From assembly GCA_963692945.1 (NCBI GenBank), contig OY843585.1, forward strand, positions 1,110,001 through 1,142,000: a stretch of DNA of 32,000 bases, written 5' to 3'. Shown in pieces: positions 829 to 28,239 of the stretch; within the stretch, counting starts at the first letter, position 1; every line of letters starts with the position of its first letter. Source of the DNA: Bdellovibrionales bacterium (GTDB lineage Bacteria > Bdellovibrionota > Bdellovibrionia > Bdellovibrionales > UBA1609). The translations under genes were made by a program, and so were the position numbers. The notes under the pieces were generated by a model. The model ran no database searches. It was not told the origin of the DNA and saw only the letters and a list, made by a program, of their open reading frames with translations.

Positions 829-1028
829 TCTTTTTTCTATTCCTAAGTGCAATAAGATATTTAAAGTAAAAACTTCTATTTTTCTGTTCCTAAGTGCAAT
901 AAGATATTTAAAGTAAAAATTTCTGTTTTTCTGTTCCTAAATGCAGCAAAATATTTAAAGTAAAAATTTCTTTTTTTCTATTCCTAAGTTCAACGAGATA
1001 TTTAAAGTAAAAACTTCTGCTTTTCTTT
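829..1028. repeat. 47-bp tandem repeat, ~4 copies, last copy overlapping the fusA stop
   Basis: The unit tcctaagtgcaataagatatttaaagtaaaaacttctatttttctgt starts at 841, 888, 935 and 982 (exact 47-nt period), with a partial copy before 841. Copy 4 contains the last fusA codons and the stop (1002-1004). Confidence 0.9.
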
Positions 1029-3077
1029 TTCAGGGAGTAAGCCATAAGCCTCCATTTCCATAGAAAAACTAGCTCTACCCTGACTCAAAGATCTTAAATC
1101 CGTTGCATAACCAAACATATTCATTAAAGGCACTTGAGCAAAAATAAGAGTCCTATCTTTTTGTTTTTCCATACCAGCTATTTGCCCTCTACGAGTGTTT
1201 AAATCACTAATGATAGGACCTGTAAACTCTTCAGGACTGGAGATTTCTAATTTAAAAATAGGTTCTAAAAGATCACTCCCAACCTCCATCAACCCTTTAC
1301 GAAAGACTTGATAAGTTACCGATTGAAGAGCTAAAACACTTAACTCGTCTTCTTTATAATCTATTTTTTTTAAACAAACTTCTAAATCTCTTAAAGGATA
1401 TCCCATAAAAGGACCAGAAGACATTCCTTGTTCTAAACCTGTCTCAACTGCTTTTGTAAACTCTGGATTTAAATTTTTTAAAACACCACTATCCTTTTTA
1501 AAAAGATATCCCTTATTTTTTTCTAAAGGCTTTAAACTTAATGTCATTTTTGCATAGTGTTTAGCACCCTGTATTTCTTTAGAAAATTCAAAAGAACCTT
1601 CCCAAGAGGAAGACGGAGTCTCTCTAAAAGAAACTTGTGGTTTTCCAATACGAGCTTCAACTTTATAATCTTTTAAAAGTCTATCCACTAAAATTTCTAA
1701 ATGGAGTTCTCCCATTCCCATAAGTAAAGTTTGACCTGTTTCTAAATCTTTTTGAACCTGACAAGAAGGGTCTTCTCTTTGAATCTTTTGAAGTGCTTCT
1801 TCAATTTTACTTTGATCCACAGAGGTTTTTGCTTCAATAGCTACAGAAATAACAGGTTCAGGAAATTTCACTTTTTCTAAAATAACACTCTTATCTTTTG
1901 CACAAAGAGTGTCCCCAGTTTGAGTCCATTTCAAACCAGCAATAACTCCAATATCTCCTGAATAAATTTCTTTAACTTCTTTTCTAGAATTGGCATGCAC
2001 TTTTAATATTTTTTGAATCCTTTCCGTCTTTTCTTGATGAGTGTTATAAACTTGAGAACCTGCTTTCAAACAACCTGAATAAACACGAACATAAGTTAAA
2101 GTTCCAGAAAAAGAATCAAAAGCAATTTTAAAAGCCAAAGCAACTAAAGATTCTTTATCATCTGTTTTACAAATAATGTCCTTACCTTTAGAGTTTTTTC
2201 CCACAGCATCTGGTATCTCTAAAGGAGAAGGAAGGTAATTTTTAACAGCATCTAATACAAGCTGAATGCCTTTATTTTTAAAAGCCGAACCACACAACAC
2301 AGGAGTTATTTTTAAATCTAAGGTTTGTTTTCTTATAGCTTGTTTTATATCTTCTGAATTTATTTCTACATTTTCTAAATATTTTTCCATCAACTGTTCA
2401 TCGGATTCACAAATTTTTTCTACAAGATGCTCTCTTTGATTTTGGATAATGCTTTTATACTCTAAAGGCACTTCTGTAACAGAAAATTTTTTTCCTAATT
2501 CATCTTGATCCCAAAAATAAGCTTTTTGTTCAATCACATCTATGACACCTTTAAACTGATCTTCCGATCCAATAGGCCACTGTATAGGTAAAGCAGTGAG
2601 GCTGAGTTTTTTTTGAATAGATTCCAAACTCTTTTCAAAGTTAGCACCCACACGATCCATTTTATTTAAAAAACAAATACGAGGAACCTTGTATCTATCC
2701 GCTTGTCTCCATACTGTTTCAGATTGAGGCTCCACTCCATGAACAGAATCAAAAACAGCAATGGCTCCATCTAAAACTCTTAAAGACCTTTCAACCTCTA
2801 TCGTAAAATCAACATGCCCAGGAGTATCAACCAAATTGATAATAATATCTTTCCAAAAACAAGTTGTATTGGCTGAAGTGATTGTGATTCCTCTTTCTTG
2901 TTCTTGTTCCATCCAATCCATAACAGCTGTGCCTTCATGAACCTCCCCCATTTTACGACTTAATCCTGTGTAAAATAATATTCTCTCACTCAATGTGGTT
3001 TTACCCGCATCAATATGTGCCATAATTCCTATATTTCTAATTTTAGATTTATCTTTGAGACTTATACCAGAAGACAT
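1002..3077 (-). CDS. fusA: Translation elongation factor G
   Basis: 691 aa with GTPase motifs AHIDAGKTT (G1), DTPGHVDF (G3) and NKMD (G4). Sits directly after rpsL-rpsG, as in the str operon. Confidence 0.95.
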
Positions 3078-3127
3078 AAAGAACCTTTTTTTTATCTTCT
3101 TTATTTTAAAATATTATAAAGAAAAAA

Positions 3128-3607
3128 TTACCAATTGTAATGAGAAAAAGCTCTATTTGATTCAGCCATACGATGAACTTCTTCTTTTTTCTTAACAGAA
3201 TGACCCCTATTGTTGTAAGCATCAACTACTTCATTTGCTAAACATTCATAAATAGGTTTCCCTTTACGAGAACGAGAGTGATCAACCAACCAACGCATGG
3301 CTAAAGCCAATTTACGAGCTGGCCTTACATCCACTGGCACTTGATAAGTGGCTCCCCCTACACGACGAGAACGAACTTCTAAAAAAGGTTTGCAATTTGT
3401 AAGTGCTTTTTTAAATACAGCTAAAGGTTCTTCACTTGATTCCATAGTTTTGATTTTTTCAAAAGCTTTATAAAGAATAGTTCTGGCTTTCTCTTTTTTT
3501 CCATCCAACATCAATTTGTTAATGAAACGAGCAACAACAACATCATTATAAACAGGATCTGGAGATATTTCTCTTGCTAAGTTTTGATTTTTTCTTCTTC
3601 TAGACAT
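3128..3607 (-). CDS. rpsG: 30S ribosomal protein S7
   Basis: 159 aa with S7-like sequence (RSRRVGGATYQVPVDVRP). Lies between rpsL and fusA. Confidence 0.95.
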   Translation of the reverse strand: MSRRRKNQNLAREISPDPVYNDVVVARFINKLMLDGKKEKARTILYKAFEKIKTMESSEEPLAVFKKALTNCKPFLEVRSRRVGGATYQVPVDVRPARKLALAMRWLVDHSRSRKGKPIYECLANEVVDAYNNRGHSVKKKEEVHRMAESNRAFSHYNW

Positions 3608-3619
3608 AATGAATATTCC

Positions 3620-3994
3620 TTATTTTTTTGGTCTCTTAGAGCCATACTTGGAACGACCCCTCTTACGATTAACTACACCCTGCGTATCTAAAGTTCCACG
3701 AATAATATGATAACGAACACCCGGGAGATCTTTAACTTTTCCTCCACGCACTAAAACAACACTATGTTCTTGAAGATTATGTCCGATACCAGGGATATAA
3801 GCATTGGCTTCAAATCCACTAGACAATTTAACACGAGCCACTTTTCTTAAAGCGGAATTAGGTTTTTTTGGAGTTGTTGTAAAAACACGAATACAAACCC
3901 CTCTTCTTTGAGGACAATTCTTCAAAGCAGGAGATTTTGATTTTACACTAGATGAAACTCTATTTTTTCTAATAAGTTGATTAATGGTTGGCAT
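3620..3994 (-). CDS. rpsL: 30S ribosomal protein S12
   Basis: 124 aa starting [10 protein letters not shown], containing [14 protein letters not shown]. First gene of the str cluster. Confidence 0.96.
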
Positions 3995-4062
3995 ATATAT
4001 TCCTCTTTTGCATCTGCTAAAAAATAGTTTTCAAAACCCTACAAGTCAATCTCTTTCTCTCA

Positions 4063-7000
4063 TTAAGCTCTTGTATTTTGTGTGTTATCATCCTTTTTAG
4101 AATTGACACTGTCTAAAGAAGTTGATCCTCCAAAAAGTTGCACATTATCCTCTTCCTCTTCATCTTCATAAGCTAAAGGATATTGATGATAACCAGCATA
4201 ACCCGTTCCTGAAGGTATTAAACGACCCATAATAACATTTTCCTTTAATCCAACTAAATAATCGTTTTTAGATTGAACAGAAGCCTCAGTAAGTATTCTA
4301 GTTGTCTCTTGAAAGGAAGCCGCTGAAATCCAACTTTTTGTATTTAAAGATGTTTTTGTAATACCTAAAAGAAGAGGTTTAAAAACAGCCAACCGACCCC
4401 CTTCTCTAATGATCTTATTGTGTACATCCTCTAATTCACCTTTATCAACTTGCTCTCCGACAATATACGGAGTGTCTCCTGATTCTAAAATCTCTACTTT
4501 TCCTAACATCTGACGGACTATCAACTCAATGTGTTTATCGTTAATAGAAACCCCTTGCAGTCGGTAAACCTCTTGAACTTCATCAACAAGATAAGAGGCT
4601 AAAGCCTGATCTCCAGAAACATTTAAAATATCATGTGGATCACTAGGACCATCCATAAGAGATTCTCCCTTTTGAATGTACTCTCCCTCTCTAACAGCAA
4701 TGTATTTTCCTTTAGGAATCAAATACTCTTTTTGCTCTCCCTCTTTAGAAGTTACAATCACTCTTTGCTTACCTTTTAAATCTTTTCCAAAATTGATATA
4801 GCCATCAATTTCAGAAATAATAGAAGATTCTTTTGGTCTTCTCGCTTCAAAAAGTTCAGCCACACGAGGTAGTCCCCCTGTGATATCTTTTGTTTTTGTA
4901 CTTTCTTTATAAACTTTAGCAAGAGTATCCCCAGCATGTATCTCATCACCATCAGAAACCATTAACTGAGCTCCAATAGAAACAGAGTAAGCCACAGGAA
5001 CATCTCTTTCTGGAAAATTAATTGTATTCCCTTTAGAATCCACTATAGCAATCATAGCTTTTTGGTCTCCTGCTTTAGAATCTGTAAGAACTTTTGTTGT
5101 AAATCCTGTCACGGAATCAACTTGCTCAATGTAGTTCACGTCCTCTTCTATACCTTTAAATTTTACAAATCCAGAAGCATCAGAAACAATAGTGTTAGAG
5201 TAAGGATCCCATTCTGCAATGACATCTTCTTTTTTAACAGTATCGCCTTCTTTAACATTTAAAATAGCACCATAAACCAATTTAAAACTTTCTCTTTCCC
5301 GACCCGTGCTATCAAGGATAACAATATCACCACCTCTGTTCATTACTGTTAACTTTCCTTCTCTATTTTGAACAACATTTACATTTACAAATTTTATTTT
5401 TCCAGAGTAGTGAGCAACATGGACGGACTGTTCAACAGAACGAGATGCTGTTCCTCCTAAATGGAAAGTTCTCATCGTCAACTGAGTTCCAGGTTCTCCA
5501 ATAGATTGAGCTGCAATAATTCCAACCGCTTCACCAATATCTACTGTTCGGCCACGAGATAAATCCCGACCATAACATTTAACACAAATACCTTTCTTAG
5601 ACTGACAAGTTAGAGAAGATCTAATTTTTACTTTTGGAATAGCGAGGTTATCTATTTTTTTGACCATTTCTTCATCAATTTCTTCCCCAGCTTCACAAAT
5701 GATTTCATTAGAATTAAGATCTACAACTTCTTCATAAGCTGTTCTACCTAAAACTCTCTCCCCAAGAGCTTCAATCACTCCCCCACTTTCTATAAGAGGT
5801 TGCATCTCCATGTGTTTGTCCGTCCCACAATCTTGTTCAGTAACAATAACATCTTGAGAAACATCTACTAATTTACGAGTTAAATAACCTGAGTTGGCTG
5901 TTTTTAAAGCCGTATCAGCTAAACCTTTACGAGCTCCATGGGTAGAAATAAAATATTGTAAAACGGTTAATCCTTCTCTGAAATTCGCTGTAATAGGAGT
6001 TTCAATAATTTCTCCAGAAGGTTTTGCCATCAAACCACGCATACCAGCTAACTGACGAATTTGAGCTGTTGAGCTTCTTGCTCCTGAATCAGCCATAATA
6101 AAAATAGGATTAAAACTAGCCGCTTCAATTTTTTGATCATCAACAATAAAGGTTTCTTTTTCTAAATACTCCATCATTTCATCAGCCACTTTATCTGCAC
6201 AGTGAGTCCAAATATCAACAACTTTATTGTATCTTTCACCATCTGTAATTAAACCCTCATCATACTGTAAACGAATTTCATCAACTTCAGCACGAGATTC
6301 TTTTAGAAGTTCTTCTTTACGAGAAGGAATTTGTAAATCATTGATACTAATAGAGATACCTGCTTTTGTAGAATATTTAAATCCAGCGTTCATCAATTTA
6401 TCCGCTAAAACAACTGTCTTTTTTCCTCCACATAGACGAAAAGTTTTATCAATTAACTCGGCTAGAGAATTTTTATTCATCACACGATTGTAAAATGAAA
6501 ATGGAACTTCTTCAGGGACAATAGAACTTAAAAGAACTCGGCCAACAGAAGTTTTTTCTCTTTTTCCGAAAACACGACAAGTGATTTCTGCTTGAAGATC
6601 AACAGCACCTGATTCGTAAGCATAAATAACTTCTGGAATACTTCCAAAAGACTTTCCTGTTCCTTGAGCTCCAGGACGGATACGAGTCATCCAATACATT
6701 CCTAAAACAATATCTTGTGTAGGATTGATAACAGGTTGACCACTTGCAGGACTCAATATGTTATTTGTGGACATAATCAATGTTCTTGCTTCCGTTTGAG
6801 CCTCTATAGACAAAGGAACATGAACAGCCATCTGATCTCCATCAAAATCAGCATTGAAAGCTGTGCAAACAAGAGGATGCAACTGAATCGCTTTTCCTTC
6901 ATGTAAAACAGGTTCAAAAGCTTGAATACCTAATCTATGCAATGTAGGTGCTCTATTTAATAAGACAGGATGTTCTTTTACAATTTCAGAAAGAATATCC

Positions 7001-17096: not shown

Positions 17097-17121
17097 GAGA
17101 GTGCTCTTCAAATCTCGTGAA

Positions 17122-17157
17122 AACAAACATTAAGGCTGTACAACCTTAATGTTTGTT
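17122..17157. terminator. Bidirectional stem-loop between convergent genes
   Basis: Perfect 14-bp stem AACAAACATTAAGG (17122-17135) / CCTTAATGTTTGTT (17144-17157) with an 8-nt loop. It lies between the stop of the sigma-54 activator (17096) and the stop of the 133-aa gene (17175). It is AT-rich and lacks a clean U-tract. Confidence 0.55.
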
Positions 17158-17174
17158 AATGTTTGTTTCTTTAA

Positions 17175-17576
17175 TTATAGACTTTGTTTTAAAAGCTGTT
17201 CTATTTTTGCTAGCCTTATTTTCATTTTTTTGCAGTATTTTTCAACTGCAAATAAACCTTTTCTAGCATGTGCCGTACTACCTGGAAAACGTTTGTCATT
17301 GGCGACTTTTATACTATGTTTCCAGAGACGTTTTCCTCTAATGCATCTTTCATTACTTACTGTTTTAAGATTTTTCAAATTTTGTTGCATCATCTGTATG
17401 TGAGTTCCCAATTTTTGCACTTGAGAGTTAAAAGTGATCACTAACTTTTCTCCTTCTATATCTGGTCCATGTAAACCAATACCTACACCTACATTACCTT
17501 CTGGTATTCTTCTGCTATTATTTTTAGCAAATGCAATACCACTTAAAAATGGTATTAAAATAATAAATAGTTTCAT
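17175..17576 (-). CDS. Small secreted hypothetical protein
   Basis: 133 aa with signal peptide MKLFIILIPFLSGIAFA and a basic helical C-terminus. A strong SD (AAAGGAGGAAGT) lies directly upstream of the ATG. No family recognised. Confidence 0.7.
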   Translation of the reverse strand: MKLFIILIPFLSGIAFAKNNSRRIPEGNVGVGIGLHGPDIEGEKLVITFNSQVQKLGTHIQMMQQNLKNLKTVSNERCIRGKRLWKHSIKVANDKRFPGSTAHARKGLFAVEKYCKKMKIRLAKIEQLLKQSL

Positions 17577-17618
17577 AACTTCCTCCTTTTTGTTTAGTTA
17601 TTATCATAGAAATACAAT

Positions 17619-17627
17619 GGGGGGGGG
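17619..17627. repeat. G9 (C9 on the minus strand) homopolymer tract
   Basis: aatgggggggggtaga, 43-51 nt upstream of the ATG at 17576. The same 16-mer context occurs at 30777-30792. Confidence 0.9.
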
Positions 17628-17693
17628 TAGAGTCAAACTTAAACAAAATTAAGTTGTATTTTTTTATTTAAATTTAGATATAAGTCCAGAAAG

Positions 17694-17751
17694 TTTTTTT
17701 CACTAAATCACTAGCAAAACACTGCAAAGGAGCATTGATAGCCGCTTTAAG
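17694..17751 (-). pseudogene. polA 3'-region fragment (remnant)
   Basis: By my hand alignment, 52 of 57 aligned nt are identical to polA 23222-23293, apart from one 15-nt in-frame gap. It translates to LKAAINAPLQCFASDLVKK, against polA LKAAIERAAINAPLQGSASDLVKK. No ORF surrounds it. Confidence 0.75.
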
Positions 17752-17819
17752 CAAAGTTATAGAATCTTATTTGATCTCTCATTTAAAAAGGAGGTTCTCC
17801 AAATTCACCAGATTTTTTA

Positions 17820-19211
17820 TCAATATCTTCCTTTTTTATTTTTTTTAATAATCTCCAGAAAGTTTTTTTTATTTTTGGATACAATGGATTCCATTTCTTT
17901 TTTATTCCAAATATGATTGTAAGCTTTTTTATAAGAGTTCATTTTATCTTTGATTTCAAAATCATCTGAAATTACATTTATATTTACTGAATAACTTAAT
18001 TTATTAAATTCCATTTCAAATAATAAAGTCAGATCAAAATCTTCTTCACTTGGTTTATAATTTTTATACATAACTTTTAAAATTATTTTTTTATTTATAT
18101 AATCTTCAGAAAAAGTTTCTGTATTTACAAAATCTTCAAAAGAAGAGAAAATTTGTTGTATCTCATTTGGTGGAACTTCTGTTAAAATAGGATGCCCTTC
18201 TTCTATATATAACTTTATTTTTTTAGAACAAAAAACCGTATCAAAAGTGTCAAATTTCCTATAAAGAATATTAAAAAAAGGTTTAAAAAAATTATCAAAT
18301 AAAACTTCTTTTGTATTGATATCCAGTAAAGTAATGTTTTCTTGTTCCTCTCGTATAAATTCCTCAGCTTCTTTATCCACGTCTTCAGGCTCACTTATAT
18401 CTTCACCTTTTGCAGCTTTAATACCTATTTCTAGCCATTGAATTAAAACTTGACCTATATATATAGCCAAAGCATCTACACTTCCCGTATCAGTCTTGTT
18501 TAAAGCAATAAGATAGTTTTCTCTATCACTGCTTTTAATTATTAAGGGTGGGTAGCCAAGTTTTAACAATATATAATTTAATAAAACTCTAGCAATTCTA
18601 CCATTCCCATCATCAAATGGATGAATTAAAAGAAACTCATGATGTGATTTCGCTAGAAAAGAAGAAATTGAAAGAGTTTTTTGTTCAAGCTCTTTGTTAA
18701 CCCACTTCATCAATTCTTCCATTTTTGCAGGCACTTCTTCAGGTTCGGCAAATTTAAATATTTCTCCTGTACTGGTTTTTACATGATTAGGCTGACTTTT
18801 ATATTTGCCAGGAATAATTTCTTTTTGAACTTCTATTCCATCTGATGTTTGAGCTTTTTTAAAAAATGGTTCTTTTAAAATAATCTTATTAAAATCTCTA
18901 ATATCAGCCTCTGTTAATGGGTAAGTTTCAGTTTTAGCCAATTCTTGAATTTTTTTTATAACCACATCATGAGATTTCATCTCATTGTAATTTCTTTCTA
19001 AATGACCTCCTTCCATCCTTCCAAAAATAAGAAGAAGCTCTGTTTCTCCATAAGTTAAAGTATTACCTTCTATTTTATTTGAATGGTAATTCCAATCTAA
19101 CCTGATTTTTTTATCCAATATCTCTTGATATTCTGATTTTAAAGGCTGAAATTCTTTCCACTTTTTAAACAAATCTTCAATTTTCTTATTTATTTCTTTT
19201 AATTCTTTCAT
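17820..19211 (-). CDS. Fic family protein (AMPylase-type, class II with N-terminal inhibitory motif) plus uncharacterised C-terminal domain
   Basis: 463 aa with the canonical Fic motif HPFDDGNGRIAR (aa 197-208) and the inhibitory-helix motif S-x-x-x-E-G as SNKIEG (aa 44-49). About 190 C-terminal residues have no recognisable motif. Confidence 0.9.
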   Translation of the reverse strand: MKELKEINKKIEDLFKKWKEFQPLKSEYQEILDKKIRLDWNYHSNKIEGNTLTYGETELLLIFGRMEGGHLERNYNEMKSHDVVIKKIQELAKTETYPLTEADIRDFNKIILKEPFFKKAQTSDGIEVQKEIIPGKYKSQPNHVKTSTGEIFKFAEPEEVPAKMEELMKWVNKELEQKTLSISSFLAKSHHEFLLIHPFDDGNGRIARVLLNYILLKLGYPPLIIKSSDRENYLIALNKTDTGSVDALAIYIGQVLIQWLEIGIKAAKGEDISEPEDVDKEAEEFIREEQENITLLDINTKEVLFDNFFKPFFNILYRKFDTFDTVFCSKKIKLYIEEGHPILTEVPPNEIQQIFSSFEDFVNTETFSEDYINKKIILKVMYKNYKPSEEDFDLTLLFEMEFNKLSYSVNINVISDDFEIKDKMNSYKKAYNHIWNKKEMESIVSKNKKNFLEIIKKNKKGRY

Positions 19212-19333
19212 TGTTAAATTTCCTTTTTTAAATCTCTCAAGGATATTATGTTATTCATTTATTTAATAAACTAAGTTTAATATTAGCATAAAATAAAAGA
19301 AAAATGGTAGCCATTAAATTAAAAAAATAGTTA

Positions 19334-19394
19334 TTCTTCTCCTTGTTGCGATGAAAAGCTCGTGAAAATAAAAATTCACACACTAGAGTTTTGT
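19334..19394. repeat. Partial copy of the MITE-like element (one end)
   Basis: ctcgtgaaaataaaa...ctagagttttgt matches the reverse complement of the left end of the 22853-23024 element. The terminal CTAGAGTTTTGT (19383-19394) abuts the stop codon of the HEAT-like gene. Confidence 0.6.
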
Positions 19395-21691
19395 TATTGA
19401 AATAAAAAATATTTTTTATGGGTTTTATGTGAAAGATTACGCACTTCAATATTCGTATCTTTCATACCCTGTTCTAAAAGCAAAAGAGCTTCTTCTTTCA
19501 TATCCGCTTCTATCAATTCATACATTTGATGTATAACAAACTCACGGACAACTGTATTTTCATCTTTCATACCTTGTTTCAAGAAGAAAAAAGCCTCTTC
19601 TCTCATATCTGCGTTTATCAATTCATACGTTTTCTTAATAACAGCATACCGTACGTACCGATTTTTATCTTGCAGACCTTGTTTCAATAAGAAAAAAACC
19701 TCTCCCTTCATATCTGCACTTATCAATTCATAAGTTTGATATATAACGGCCTGACGTACATCTTTACTCTCATCTTCCAGACCTTGTTTCAATAAGAAGA
19801 AAACCTCTTCCCTCATATCTGCGTTTATCAATTCATAGGTTTGATACATAATGAGTTGACGAACACCCTCATCCTCATCTTGCAGACCTTGTTTTAATAA
19901 GAAAAAAACCTCTTCTTTCATATCTGCGTTTATCAATTCATCCATTTGATATATAACAGCATGACGTACAACTCTATTCTTATCTTGAAGACCTTGTTTT
20001 AATAATGAAAAAAAATCCTCTTTCATTCCCACTTTTATCAATTCATACACTTTCTGAATAACAGTCTGACGTACATAGACATTCTCATCTTGCAGACCTT
20101 GTTTTAAAAACGAAAGAGCCTCTTCTTTCATTCCCATTTTTATCAATCCATACGTTTGATATATAACGGCCTGACGTACATCTTTACTCTCATCTTCCAG
20201 ACCTTGTTTTAAAAACGAAAGAGCCTCTTCTTTCATTCCCATTTTTATCAATCCATACGTTTGATACATAACGGCCTGACGTATATCTTCATCCTCATCT
20301 TGCAGACTTTGTTTTAATAAGAAAAAAACCTCTTCTTTCATATCTGCGTTTATCAATTCATCGGCTTGATATATAACTTCTAAATTCACACTTTTATTCT
20401 CATCTTGCAGACCTTGTTTTAAAAAGGAAAAAGCCTCTTCTTTCATTCCTACTTTTATCAATTTACCCATCTGATACATAACAGCCTGACGTACATCTTC
20501 ACTCTCATCTTCCAGACCTTGTTTTAATAATGAAAGAGTTTCTTCTTTCATTCCTACTTTTATCAATTCATCGGCTTGATATATAACAACCTGACGTACA
20601 CCTTCATCCTCATCTTTCAAACCTTGTTTTAATAAGAAAAAAGATTCTTCTTTCATTCCCATTTTTATCAATTCAGATACTTTCTTAATAACAACCTGAC
20701 GAATATTTTCATTCTCATCTTTCAGACCTTGTTTTAAAAAGGAAAAAATCTTTTCTCTCGTTCCTGCTTCTATCAATCTATCCATCTGATATATAACAGC
20801 CTCACGTACACCCTCGTCCTTATCTTTCATTCCTTGTTCTAAAAACGAAAGAGCTTCTTCTTCCATTCCTACTTTTATCAATTCAGATGTTTTCTTAATA
20901 ACAGCCTGACGAATACTTTCATCCTCATCTTTCAGACCTTGTTTTAATAAGAAAAAAGATTCTTCTTTCATTCCTACTTCTATCAATTTATCCATTCTCT
21001 TAATAACAGCCTGACGTACATTTTTATTTTTATCTTTTAGACCTTGTTCTAAAAACGAAAGAGCCTCTTCTTTCATGTCTGCTTCTATCAATTTATCCGT
21101 TTGATACATAACAGCCTGACGTACATTTTTATTTTTATCTTTTAGACCTTGTTCTAAAAATAAAAGAGCTTCTTCTTTCATTCCTACTTCTATCAATTTA
21201 TCCGTTTGATGTATAACAGCTTGACGAACATCCTCGTCCTTATCTTTCATTCCTTGTTCTAAAAACGAAAAAGATTCTTCTTTCATGTCTGCTTCTATCA
21301 ATTCATCCGTTTGATACATAACAGCCTGACGTACCCCCTCGTCCTTATCTTTCATTCCTTGTTCTAAAAACGAAAAAGATTCTTCTTTCATGTCTGCTTC
21401 TATCAACTCATCCGTTTGATACATAACAGCCTGACGTACATATACATTCTCATCTTTCATTCCTTGTTTTAAAAGTGAAAGAGCTTTTTCTTTCCTATTT
21501 GTTTTTATCAATTCATCCGTTTTTTTAACAATAGCTAAATGTATATCTTCATGCTCGCTTTTCACACCTTGATTTAAATGAGGGTTTGTAGCATAAGATT
21601 CTACAGCATAAATTAAAAAACTTATAAGACAGGAGTAAGAAAGAATGAAACAAACTTTCAAAATAAAACTTTTAAAACCACTTAAAATCAT
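19394..21691 (-). CDS. Secreted or membrane-anchored protein of ~20 tandem 35-aa HEAT-like (PBS-lyase-type) repeats
   Basis: 765 aa with a hydrophobic N-terminus (FILKVCFILSYSCLISFLIYAVESYA). It then carries 20 units of consensus VRQAVMYQTDELIEADMKEEaFsFLkQGLKDedeg. The L-KD-D--VR-A signature is that of HEAT-like repeats. Confidence 0.85.
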   Translation of the reverse strand: MILSGFKSFILKVCFILSYSCLISFLIYAVESYATNPHLNQGVKSEHEDIHLAIVKKTDELIKTNRKEKALSLLKQGMKDENVYVRQAVMYQTDELIEADMKEESFSFLEQGMKDKDEGVRQAVMYQTDELIEADMKEESFSFLEQGMKDKDEDVRQAVIHQTDKLIEVGMKEEALLFLEQGLKDKNKNVRQAVMYQTDKLIEADMKEEALSFLEQGLKDKNKNVRQAVIKRMDKLIEVGMKEESFFLLKQGLKDEDESIRQAVIKKTSELIKVGMEEEALSFLEQGMKDKDEGVREAVIYQMDRLIEAGTREKIFSFLKQGLKDENENIRQVVIKKVSELIKMGMKEESFFLLKQGLKDEDEGVRQVVIYQADELIKVGMKEETLSLLKQGLEDESEDVRQAVMYQMGKLIKVGMKEEAFSFLKQGLQDENKSVNLEVIYQADELINADMKEEVFFLLKQSLQDEDEDIRQAVMYQTYGLIKMGMKEEALSFLKQGLEDESKDVRQAVIYQTYGLIKMGMKEEALSFLKQGLQDENVYVRQTVIQKVYELIKVGMKEDFFSLLKQGLQDKNRVVRHAVIYQMDELINADMKEEVFFLLKQGLQDEDEGVRQLIMYQTYELINADMREEVFFLLKQGLEDESKDVRQAVIYQTYELISADMKGEVFFLLKQGLQDKNRYVRYAVIKKTYELINADMREEAFFFLKQGMKDENTVVREFVIHQMYELIEADMKEEALLLLEQGMKDTNIEVRNLSHKTHKKYFLFQ
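19397..21538. repeat. Intragenic 105-bp tandem repeat array (~20 units)
   Basis: Exact 105-nt period; for example, gcttctatca recurs at 21291 and 21396. Adjacent units such as 21241-21345 and 21346-21450 are nearly identical at the DNA level. Confidence 0.92.
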
Positions 21692-21856
21692 ATCTTTGTT
21701 TCTAATAAATCTAGAAATGCCTTTTTACAAGCTAAAATCAAGTGATATGTAAAACTTTCACAGTGATTTTGTTAATCATGCTAGATTATCAACTTTTAAC
21801 TCAATGCTAGAACTTTCAATAAATGAACTGAGGTTTTCCCTAATGAACTAGGGCTA

Positions 21857-22198
21857 CCGTAGTTTTTCTATATGCGAAAAACCGTAGAACAAAATTCTAT
21901 ATGCGAAAACCAGTAGGTTTTCTCTAGGAATACCCCTCCTTGTTTTCTGAACTTGAAGATCTTAACCCATATGCGAAAACCAGTAGGTTTTCTCTATCTG
22001 CGAAAACCAGCAGTTTTTCTCTATGTTTAAATCTTTTATTTTAACAAGATTTGAAGAACAAAGCCCCTCATGCAAAAACCGTAGTTTTTCTCTAGGAATA
22101 CCTTTTTACTTTTTGAGGTTGAAGAGTATCCCCTCCTACGATGAAAGCTCAAAAAGTAAAAAGGGAAGGACTAGAGTTTTGTAAATTAAGAGTTTTGT
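21857..22198. repeat. Composite/nested cluster of MITE-like element modules
   Basis: Four copies of the small-hairpin module (A)TGCGAAAACCAGTAG(G/T)TTTTCTCTA lie at 21901-21926, 21971-21996, 21999-23 and 22070-94. The cluster also has one truncated and one complete long hairpin (22101-22164), a degenerate left terminus ACAAAATTCTAT (21889-21900), and a right terminus CTAGAGTTTTGT (22171-22182) followed by a second partial terminus (22188-22198). Confidence 0.75.
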
Positions 22199-22389
22199 CC
22201 GATATCTGTCAGTAATACAAAAAAAGTTGTAAAAAAACTACTTTTAGAAGTTATATGAAGCCATAATATTTGCTTTAGTAATGAGTGAGAGTTTTTGGAT
22301 GGAATTTTTTTACAATCTATGTTAAGATATTCTTGTTCAAAAATGATTTTTTATAAAAACAATAGTGCGACTAAAAATAGGGAGAAAAA

Positions 22390-22845
22390 ATGATGAACGC
22401 CAATGCTTTAGAACAAAATGAAATTCTTTTTGAAATAAAAAAATTATCTACACAAATGCAAACATTAGACTCAAAAATAGATACAAAAGTAGATAATCTA
22501 GATTCAAAGATAGAAAATCTAGATTCAAAGATAGAAAACCTAGATTCAAAGATAGATAATCTAGATTCAAAGATAGATACAAAGGTAGATGGATTATCTT
22601 CAAGAATAGATAGATTGGATGAAAAGATGGTTGATTTAAATATAAGGGTAGATAAATTAGATACAAAAGTAGATACAAGAATAGATAAATTAGATGAAAA
22701 AGTAGAGGGTCTTAAAACCGATCATGCTGAACTTAGTGCAAGTGTGGTTAGTATAAAGTCTCATCAAAAAGTTTCTACATGGGTTATTACTTTGCTTCTC
22801 CCTATATTTACGGTTATTACTATTGCAGCCATTAAATATGTTTAA
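22390..22845 (+). CDS. Tail-anchored coiled-coil protein with heptad/hendecad repeats
   Basis: 151 aa with GGGAGA 6 nt before the ATG. It has canonical heptads (I-E-N-L-D-S-K) and a single C-terminal TM segment (WVITLLLPIFTVITIAAI). The architecture resembles XhlA-type small coiled-coil membrane proteins, but no sequence-level assignment is possible. Confidence 0.7.
   Translation: MMNANALEQNEILFEIKKLSTQMQTLDSKIDTKVDNLDSKIENLDSKIENLDSKIDNLDSKIDTKVDGLSSRIDRLDEKMVDLNIRVDKLDTKVDTRIDKLDEKVEGLKTDHAELSASVVSIKSHQKVSTWVITLLLPIFTVITIAAIKYV
22498..22581 (+). repeat. 21-bp in-frame tandem repeat (4 units) inside the coiled-coil gene
   Basis: ctagattcaaagatagaaaat starts at 22498, 22519, 22540 and 22561. 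It encodes LDSKIEN/LDSKIDN. Confidence 0.92.
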
Positions 22846-22852
22846 ATCCTAA

Positions 22853-23024
22853 ACAAAACTCTAGTTCAAAACTTTTATTTTCACGAGATTTGAAGAACAA
22901 AGCCCCTCATGCGAAAAACAGAAGTTTTTCTCTAGGAATACCCCTCCTTGTTTTCTGAACTTGAAGAGTGTCCCTCTTACGATGAAAGGTCAGAAAATAA
23001 GGAGGGGAAGAACGAGAGTTTTGT
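22853..23024 (+). mobile_element. MITE-like non-autonomous element (172 bp)
   Basis: Terminal inverted repeats ACAAAACTCTAG (22853-22864) and CGAGAGTTTTGT (23013-23024) match at 11/12 positions. Both ends are flanked by TAA (22850-52 and 23025-27). The interior carries one small-hairpin module (22909-22934) and an 18-bp-stem hairpin (22941-22958 / 22990-23007). There is no ORF. Confidence 0.65.
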
Positions 23025-27966: not shown

Positions 27967-28015
27967 GTGAAAAACTGGAGTTTTTCTCTAAAAGTCATGT
28001 GCAAAAACCTGTAGA
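27967..28015. repeat. Extra small-hairpin modules adjacent to the 28016-28239 element
   Basis: The variants gtgaaaaactggagtttttctcta (27967-27990) and atgtgcaaaaacctgtagaac lie just outside the left terminal repeat. Confidence 0.5.
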
Positions 28016-28239
28016 ACAAAACTCTAGAAATACCCCTCTGCGAAAACCAGAGTTGCGAAAACCAGTAGTTTTTCTCTATGTTAAAACTTTCATTTTCACG
28101 AGATTTGAAGAACAAAACCCCTCATGCGAAAACCAGTAGTTTTTCTCTAGGAATATCCCTCCTTGTTTTCTGAACTTGAAGAGCGTCCCTTTTACGATGA
28201 AAGGTCAGAAAACAAGGAGGGGAAGAACTAGAGTTTTGT
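28016..28239 (+). mobile_element. MITE-like non-autonomous element (224 bp)
   Basis: Perfect 12-bp terminal inverted repeats ACAAAACTCTAG (28016-28027) and CTAGAGTTTTGT (28228-28239). Both ends are flanked by AGA (28013-15 and 28240-42). The interior has small-hairpin modules at 28054-28078 and 28124-28149 and a 17-bp-stem hairpin (28157-28173 / 28205-28221). The right terminus supplies the last codons and the stop of the 881-aa ORF. Confidence 0.7.

Follow-up and report, generated by a model that had tools for sequence, protein, structure and literature searches.

Co-varying hairpins with a conserved tip at the core of a possibly mobile short repeat in a small-genome relative of Bdellovibrio

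A 32,000-nucleotide stretch of the chromosome of an uncultured Bdellovibrionales bacterium (assembly GCA_963692945.1, contig OY843585.1, positions 1,110,001 to 1,142,000; hereafter the window) holds three long hairpins, A, B and C, in which the stem varies around a loop that hardly changes. The locus raises the question of what is maintained in these hairpins, and whether it is maintained as RNA, as single-stranded DNA or by mutation alone. The hairpins belong to a small family of short repeats, not described before, of which they are the core; the family looks mobile and is present in a clade of low-GC, small-genome Bdellovibrionota. Our best reading is a new foldback repeat, like MITEs (miniature inverted-repeat transposable elements), BOX elements or REPINs, that acts as a folded single strand. 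As a specific explanation we favour, at a little under an even chance, a non-autonomous mobile element whose invariant tip is read by a protein encoded elsewhere, the hairpins placed at gene 3' ends and the new stop codons being by-products.

Pairing and conservation in the long hairpins

Hairpin A (22101-22164 on the plus strand, arms 22101-22117 / 22148-22164) has a 17-bp stem without mismatch, CCTTTTTACTTTTTGAG / CTCAAAAAGTAAAAAGG, that encloses the conserved apical module. Hairpin B (22941-23007, plus strand, arms 22941-22958 / 22990-23007) has an 18-bp stem with a single G·T wobble at 22950/22998, and hairpin C (28156-28222, plus strand, arms 28157-28173 / 28205-28221), a near-duplicate of B, has 17 bp without mismatch plus a basal T·G. 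An earlier note on this DNA had reported these three hairpins of 17-18 bp with their arms, the G-U-type position in the B stem and a fixed loop pattern, and all of this was found again, the pattern TTGAAGAG-nn-TCCC-n3/4-TACGATGAAAG being present in 3/3 of the window hairpins. Its description of stem A as entirely different went too far, since the left arm of A is identical to that of B/C at 11/17 positions and the right arm at 11-12/17. The six positions at which the left arms differ are all transitions; five of the stem pairs are altered on both sides between A and B/C, and the sixth is A-T in A, G·T in B and G-C in C. The arms of B and C are identical at 17/17 and 16/17 positions, so that the window holds two independent stem versions and not three. 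All hairpins are far more stable than chance, with RNA z-scores of -5 to -7 on both strands and 0/200 dinucleotide-preserving shuffles as stable, and the same is true with DNA folding parameters.

A third stem version was found in L008 (ERZ26695812), a relative whose PolA is 82% identical. This fourth copy, F (4090-4156), is separated by 37 nt from the 3' end of tRNA-Ser(GGA), and its locus has no relation to that of any window copy. Its arms, AACTTCTTATTTTATGAA / TTCATAAAATGAGAAGTT, are complementary throughout except for one T·G and are identical to the A and B/C arms at 11-13/17 positions, and its loop, TTGAAGAG-CA-CCCCTCC-TGCGATGAAAG, is almost the same as the window loops.

The outer parts of the B and C arms (22941-22949 / 22999-23007 and 28157-28164 / 28214-28221) read as an anti-Shine-Dalgarno / Shine-Dalgarno pair, CCCCTCCTT / AAGGAGGGG. 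A role of this kind was rejected because A and F do not keep the motif, and the likeness in B and C is probably incidental.

For a covariation test, copies A, B, C and F were aligned with ungapped arms on a structure of 26 pairs, and the controls were 500 shuffles and partners slid by 1-3 columns. Standard pairs filled 94.2% of the cells, compared to 85.6 ± 1.9% in the shuffled and 46-57% in the slid alignments. Ten of the 26 pairs were altered on both sides, versus 4.3 ± 1.5 after shuffling (0/500 shuffles reached 10, and none matched the observed pairing) and 0-3 after sliding, and one pair passes stepwise from A-T in A and F through G·T in B to G-C in C. Because B is nearly the same as C, only three independent lineages contribute, and the covariation is strong although it rests on few events. 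These values support the proposal of the earlier note that arms changing together around a fixed loop point to selection on pairing.

The position of the differences is informative as well. When the paralogues A and B are compared, identity is 90% in both the upstream flank and the loop and 65-71% in the arms. Across species the loop is 79-86% identical and the flanks can hardly be aligned, and between stem types the arms are 65-76% identical versus 79-90% for the apical module. A conserved loop, variable arms and diverged flanks together indicate that the constraint lies on the pairing of the stem and on the sequence of the tip: the apical 29 nt are nearly constant, also across species, and the helix of 17-19 bp is free to change while it stays complementary.

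Long perfect palindromes are substrates for template-switch mutation, and complementary arms might thus be kept by template switching (quasi-palindrome correction) or by gene conversion between the arms, in inert junk DNA under no structural selection. The stems change at least as fast as the flanks between A and B, which templated double changes would easily produce. We nevertheless regard this explanation as quite improbable. The earlier note had reasoned that arms always being exact copies of each other, through copy-back, would speak against selection; this is not the case, as G·T wobbles persist in B, C and F and count against instant copy-back as the sole cause. A strand-symmetric repair process would also not predict the bias of the mismatches (six G·T versus one A·C), and it leaves unexplained both the 17 apical nt that are unchanged across two species with diverged flanks and the two co-varying pairs above the G·A module described below.

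Two purine-rich strands of the apical module, UUGAAGAG and CGAUGAAAG, are invariant in 4/4 copies. Set against each other in antiparallel order, the strands read U-A, U-A, G·A, A·G, A-U, G·A, A·G and G-C, so that tandem G·A pairs are possible. Above them stand two co-varying or wobble pairs (U-A / C-G; A-U / G·U) and then a C-rich tip of 7-8 nt, YCCC(C)UYY. In A, B and F (3/4 copies), the minimum-energy fold of the plus strand computed with ViennaRNA contains this tandem G·A module. Hammerhead ribozymes and K-turns were considered and rejected: by direct reading only, the tandem G·A is present without a three-way junction or a 3-nt bulge.

The module might represent a new class of structured nucleic acid, in which a symmetric G·A loop and a C-rich tip form the docking site of a dedicated protein not yet described, although we consider this unlikely. 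In one version, the plus strand would be a small RNA whose UCCC-type loop targets ribosome-binding sites; in the other, a mobility system working on single-stranded DNA would read the tip of the hairpin and not the foot of the stem or the element ends. In both, the freely evolving stem would give each copy its own identity.

The element around the hairpin and its dispersal

Each long hairpin is the right-hand core of a mosaic element of 172-294 bp with 12-bp terminal inverted repeats. The general order of modules from left to right is one to four small motifs, a spacer, another small motif, a 6-bp outer helix CTCTAG / CTAGAG and the long hairpin; the spacer looks like a degenerate left arm of the hairpin plus the loop. 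Three full copies and three fragments were found in the window. The minimal form, element B (172 bp, 22853-23024, plus strand), consists of ACAAAACTCTAG, spacer, one small motif, hairpin and CGAGAGTTTTGT; TAA stands at both flanks, and the final base falls within the polA stop codon. Element C (224 bp, 28016-28239, plus strand) has AGA at both flanks, and its right terminal repeat encodes the terminal codons (TKL) and the stop of the gene for an 881-aa tail-fibre-like protein. The composite element A (294 bp, about 21889-22182, plus strand) runs from a degenerate left end, ACAAAATTCTAT, through half-copy D, three small motifs, the spacer and hairpin A to the right end CTAGAGTTTTGT.

The fragments are halves of the same design. 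Half-copy D (21922-21959, plus strand) is made of CTCTAGGAATA, a left arm of the B/C type and TTGAAGA, and ends within the loop. The right-half remnant E (19340-19394, plus strand) keeps the 3' part of the loop TGCGATGAAAAG, the right arm CTCGTGAAAATAAAAAT and CTAGAGTTTTGT, its final base lying within the stop codon of a HEAT-repeat gene. Fragment G (17097-17127, minus strand), an inverted left half (…TTTTCACGAGATTTGAAGAGCACTCTCC), begins immediately past the stop of a sigma-54 activator gene. As D, E and G end at differing positions of the loop, a fixed recombination breakpoint within it was rejected.

The spacer of element B lies at 22864-22909 on the plus strand (…CTTTTATTTTCACGAG-ATTTGAAGA-ACAAAGCCCCTCAT), with homologous modules at 22025-22070 in element A and 28079-28124 in element C. 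The 24-nt small motif, GCGAAAACCAGTAGTTTTTCTCTA and variants, occurs four times on the plus strand between 21903 and 22093 in element A (21903-26, 21973-96, 22000-23 and 22071-93) and again at 22911-34, 28055-78 and 28126-49. The right arm of E is complementary at 15/15 nt to the left arm of the spacer modules and of G, which indicates that a fourth stem version existed formerly. An attenuator with alternative pairing through the upstream half-copy would work in L008 but was rejected, since in the window the D arm and the right arm of A do not correspond.

The terminal inverted repeats, ACAAAACTCTAG / CTAGAGTTTTGT, match over 12 nt at 11/12 positions in B and extend to 23 nt with 83% complementarity in C. 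When element B was folded as a whole, they closed a structure with three internal hairpins (z-scores of -6.9 and -6.1 for the two strands). The L008 element (3978-4182) has a 12/12 terminal inverted repeat, CCTCACTCAAAA / TTTTGAGTGAGG, of a sequence unlike the window repeats; it further contains a small-motif homologue and, upstream, a left-half copy.

The copies and half-copies stand at non-homologous sites against gene 3' ends, and the same sites are empty in relatives: the junction of polA and the activator is empty in L007 (GCA_029782575.1), L008 and L009 (PolA 84%, 82% and 72% identical), and F occupies a non-syntenic tRNA-Ser site. The element DNA is short, AT-rich, non-coding and strongly base-paired, as in MITEs, which likewise have terminal inverted repeats and dispersed copies with empty orthologous sites. 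Terminal inverted repeats, mosaic modules, half-copies and empty orthologous sites together point to a mobile repeat. A small protein as the product of the element was rejected, since reading frames and indels differ among the copies and no frame is shared; a 1186-aa chimeric query made of all open six-frame segments of the element gave no match even at E = 10.

The empty junction corresponds to a strain-specific island of 5.9 kb (17097-23023), bounded on the left by G and on the right by element B, with E and D/A inside. It separates polA from the convergent sigma-54 activator gene; the stops of these two genes are 5.9 kb apart in the window versus 6-51 bp in the three relatives, and the insertion of the island has swapped out the final ~7 codons of the activator. 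The island carries a 133-aa open reading frame and genes for a Fic-domain protein, a 765-aa HEAT-repeat protein and a 151-aa coiled-coil/transmembrane protein, and these proteins look effector-like. A 105-nt repeat of 19.7 copies (35-aa HEAT units, 19450-21522) forms the bulk of the 765-aa gene, and a 21-nt repeat of 4.9 copies (LDSKIxN heptads, 22478-22579) lies within the coiled-coil gene. Adjoining fragment G, a perfect 14-bp hairpin, AACAAACATTAAGG … CCTTAATGTTTGTT (17122-17157), is terminator-like and is unmatched in the intergenic spacer of the relatives. In L008, F borders a stretch (1270-4282) between tRNA-Val and tRNA-Ser with orphan genes of 81, 91, 368 and 118 aa and no Pfam match, which looks like an island with no sequence relation to that of the window.

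With an island framed by an inverted G and element B, the elements could be cassette boundaries, that is, att- or attC-like hairpins at which a recombinase inserts cassettes or islands. Every island gene has an element or a remnant at its 3' end (E for the HEAT-repeat gene, B for the coiled-coil gene), the 37-nt distance of F from the tRNA 3' end recalls a classic site of island integration, and several half-copies break inside the loop. The integron attC sites resemble the present element in that structure is conserved over sequence, in their use as a folded single strand and in beginning at or overlapping the stop of the preceding gene. The core sites of attC follow the consensus RYYYAAC / GTTRRRY, and the ends ACAAAAC… / …GTTTTGT do not fit it by direct reading. 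The conserved and variable parts are also swapped, as the tip of attC is variable and its base conserved, and the breakpoints of D, E and G, as said, differ. Neither the window nor the DNA beside F encodes an integrase. With core sites and an integron integrase missing from the window, membership in attC was rejected, and we judge a recombination site of any of these kinds to be very improbable.

The window belongs to a low-GC (~32%) bacterial chromosome, which PolA homologues assign to the Bdellovibrionota, on a contig of 1.56 Mb. Its minus strand carries fusA-rpsG-rpsL-rpoC-rpoB-rplLJAK-nusG-secE, followed by the sigma-54/FHA activator (plus), polA-divIC-eno with a 238-aa gene (minus) and tail-fibre-like and pilin-like genes. 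A tandem repeat with a unit of 47 nt (832-1026; 4.1 copies, 88% matches) overlaps the final codons and the stop of fusA, which lies on the minus strand at 1002-3077, and extends into the downstream intergenic DNA. Upstream of the operon of the 238-aa gene, eno, divIC and polA, a palindrome GAAAAA-N6-TTTTTC (27969-27986) aligns with similar motifs in L007, L008 and L009; it resembles the small motif and may be a site for a regulator that the repeat has copied or mimics. The 881-aa tail-fibre-like protein ends in …STKL*, of which TKL and the stop come from the right terminal repeat (28228-28239). Its paralogue P0121, outside the window on the same contig, ends in …TTKL, and this similarity of the final residues suggests a further element copy at the 3' end of that gene.

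Strand preference and gene ends

The signals for the strand on which the hairpin acts are in conflict. Six wobble cells are G·U on the plus strand (A·C on the minus strand) and one is reversed; the plus strand is the more stable in 4/4 copies with DNA parameters and in 3/4 with RNA parameters, reaching -27.2 kcal/mol as RNA in copy F compared to -17.7 kcal/mol for the minus strand; and the G·A module is restricted to the plus strand. Gene-end orientation, in contrast, puts the minus strand in transcripts. In 5/5 cases, the right end of the element meets a gene at its 3' end, and the minus strand of the element is the sense strand of that gene. The genes concerned are polA, the HEAT-repeat gene, the tail-fibre-like gene, the sigma-54 activator gene (via the inverted G) and the L008 tRNA-Ser, with 11 nt between the tRNA-Ser and the L008 right terminal repeat and 0-1 nt for the other four. 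For F and G, the orientation tracks the adjacent gene and not the direction of replication.

This arrangement at gene ends suggests that the hairpin could be selected as RNA, as a 3' terminator or stabiliser like SPRITE, REP and ERIC in mRNAs, as a small RNA or as a protein-binding hairpin that would offer its invariant G·A-rich internal loop and C-rich tip to the ligand, its spread by duplication being secondary. Symmetric tandem G·A internal loops with invariant strands are typical of RNA protein-binding motifs, and such a loop is what the minimum-energy RNA fold gave in three of the four copies. Left-arm changes from A to B/C are transitions without exception and the interior stem mismatches are G·U, which fits compensatory evolution through wobble intermediates. 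On the plus strand, moreover, UUUUGU comes after the outer helix CUCUAG/CUAGAG. Convergent genes are enriched in SPRITE, an 18-bp duplex repeat, at their 3' ends (PMC3049150).

Other results weigh on the opposite side. The favoured plus strand is antisense to the abutting genes in 4/5 cases; their transcripts would carry the A·C mismatches and, for F, the weaker of the two folds. Elements A and C have no sigma-70-like promoter match within them or just upstream, and near F the closest plus-strand promoter-like matches are ~200 nt upstream, separated from the element by a terminator-like site. When both strands were scanned for terminators, no long hairpin was flagged, which indicates that none has an immediate U-tract. 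Copy A, furthermore, sits upstream of a gene and not behind one. Searching Rfam yielded no match for the window at gathering thresholds, and in E-value mode only generic microRNA-precursor hairpins appeared, at 18-34 bits versus thresholds of 43-97. An RNA element is, overall, a serious contender that we consider rather less probable than not.

Several points count against the mobile element that we prefer. The orientation in all five cases follows the neighbouring gene and not replication, which is expected from selection at the level of the transcript, and the conservation pattern, with a conserved tip and variable arms, is opposite to that of REPINs. The 3-bp flank repeats (TAA and AGA), which may be target-site duplications and would then fit a mobile element, are insecure: they are identical in B and C, with a chance of ~0.02 per site, and agree at only 2/3 positions in A and F. 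The left flanks of A, B and C are, in addition, alike, so that the left boundary is uncertain and the true left end possibly lies further out. Among the proteins encoded in the window there is no transposase, recombinase or reverse transcriptase. About 128 kb of DNA from relatives gave one copy only. Exact-pattern scans of public genome, metagenome and viral contig collections gave chance matches or none, and no real copy; the patterns were the left boundary (genome and viral contigs), the loop (metagenome and viral contigs) and the small motif (viral and metagenome contigs). BLAST, regular-expression and covariance-model (R1) searches of ~183 kb found nothing beyond the four known copies, element C had no blastn match in the plasmid and phage collections, and no transposase, integrase or reverse transcriptase is encoded beside F.

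We propose for the non-autonomous mobile element that it would act folded and single-stranded, the data favouring the plus strand. The helix would be a mere scaffold, and a protein encoded elsewhere would read the invariant apical module. By analogy with REP/REPIN and RAYT, the ends of IS200/IS605 and integron attC, this reading would most likely take place on single-stranded DNA during mobilisation. Neighbouring genes would gain, as a by-product, a strong hairpin at the 3' end and, in some cases, a new stop codon.

Comparison with known repeats and significance

In design, the nearest known system is that of the BOX elements of Streptococcus pneumoniae, composite MITE-like repeats whose ends are fixed and pair with each other and whose internal tandem module is variable (PMC3049150). 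Both are short, AT-rich, non-coding, intergenic and predicted to fold tightly, with insertions that alter gene ends, and both combine paired fixed end modules with an internal unit of variable number (boxB there, the 24-nt small motif here). There is no sequence similarity, however, and the present element is dominated by one long hairpin with an invariant tip and freely co-varying arms; its copy number appears low in the DNA examined, and no candidate insertion-sequence partner is known.

REP/REPIN and RAYT are nearest in logic. They too involve extragenic palindromic hairpin repeats whose pairing is kept by compensatory changes and, as is proposed here, an enzyme working in trans from a single gene. 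In REPINs, compensatory changes occur in a hairpin thought to act as single-stranded DNA (PMC3116915), and RAYT and IS200/IS605 enzymes recognise folded single-stranded DNA strand-specifically, by its loops and irregularities (PMC8266576). REPs have GTAG at the foot of the stem, whereas GGAATA precedes the stem in the window and TAACA in L008; here GTAG occurs only within some small motifs, ~17 nt upstream of the stem, and is variable (GCAG, GAAG, GGAG). The arms of REP are conserved and the spacer of REPINs variable, unlike the variable arms and conserved tip of the present element. Because GTAG is missing from the stem foot and the conservation pattern is inverted, membership in REP/RAYT was rejected. 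No RAYT gene was found among the window genes.

The location at gene 3' ends is shared with intrinsic terminators and SPRITE-like repeats, and the GC-containing stem with a direct U-tract is not. In SPRITE, the U-rich tract directly follows the duplex, whereas here UUUUGU comes only past the extra 6-bp outer helix and on the plus strand only; a large conserved apical module and a mosaic left half, both present here, are also missing from SPRITE. In the msr-msd region of retrons, as here, a terminal 12-nt inverted repeat closes a fold with small 5' hairpins and a long hairpin of variable stem. Retrons are, however, single loci tied to a reverse transcriptase, versus several copies per genome here, many of them truncated. 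As no reverse transcriptase gene lies beside any copy, and the neighbouring reading frames contain no reverse transcriptase domain, a retron was rejected.

The family thus offers a case of compensatory evolution across species in a bacterial repeat from a barely studied lineage, the low-GC Bdellovibrionota with a genome of ~1.56 Mb. If the apical module is truly a protein-binding motif of RNA or of single-stranded DNA, it would represent a new recognition system; otherwise, the repeat would be another MITE family, mainly of use for annotation and strain typing. Standing at gene ends, where they supply or overlap stops, and bracketing an effector-like island, the elements may mark, or help to create, a flexible part of a reduced genome.

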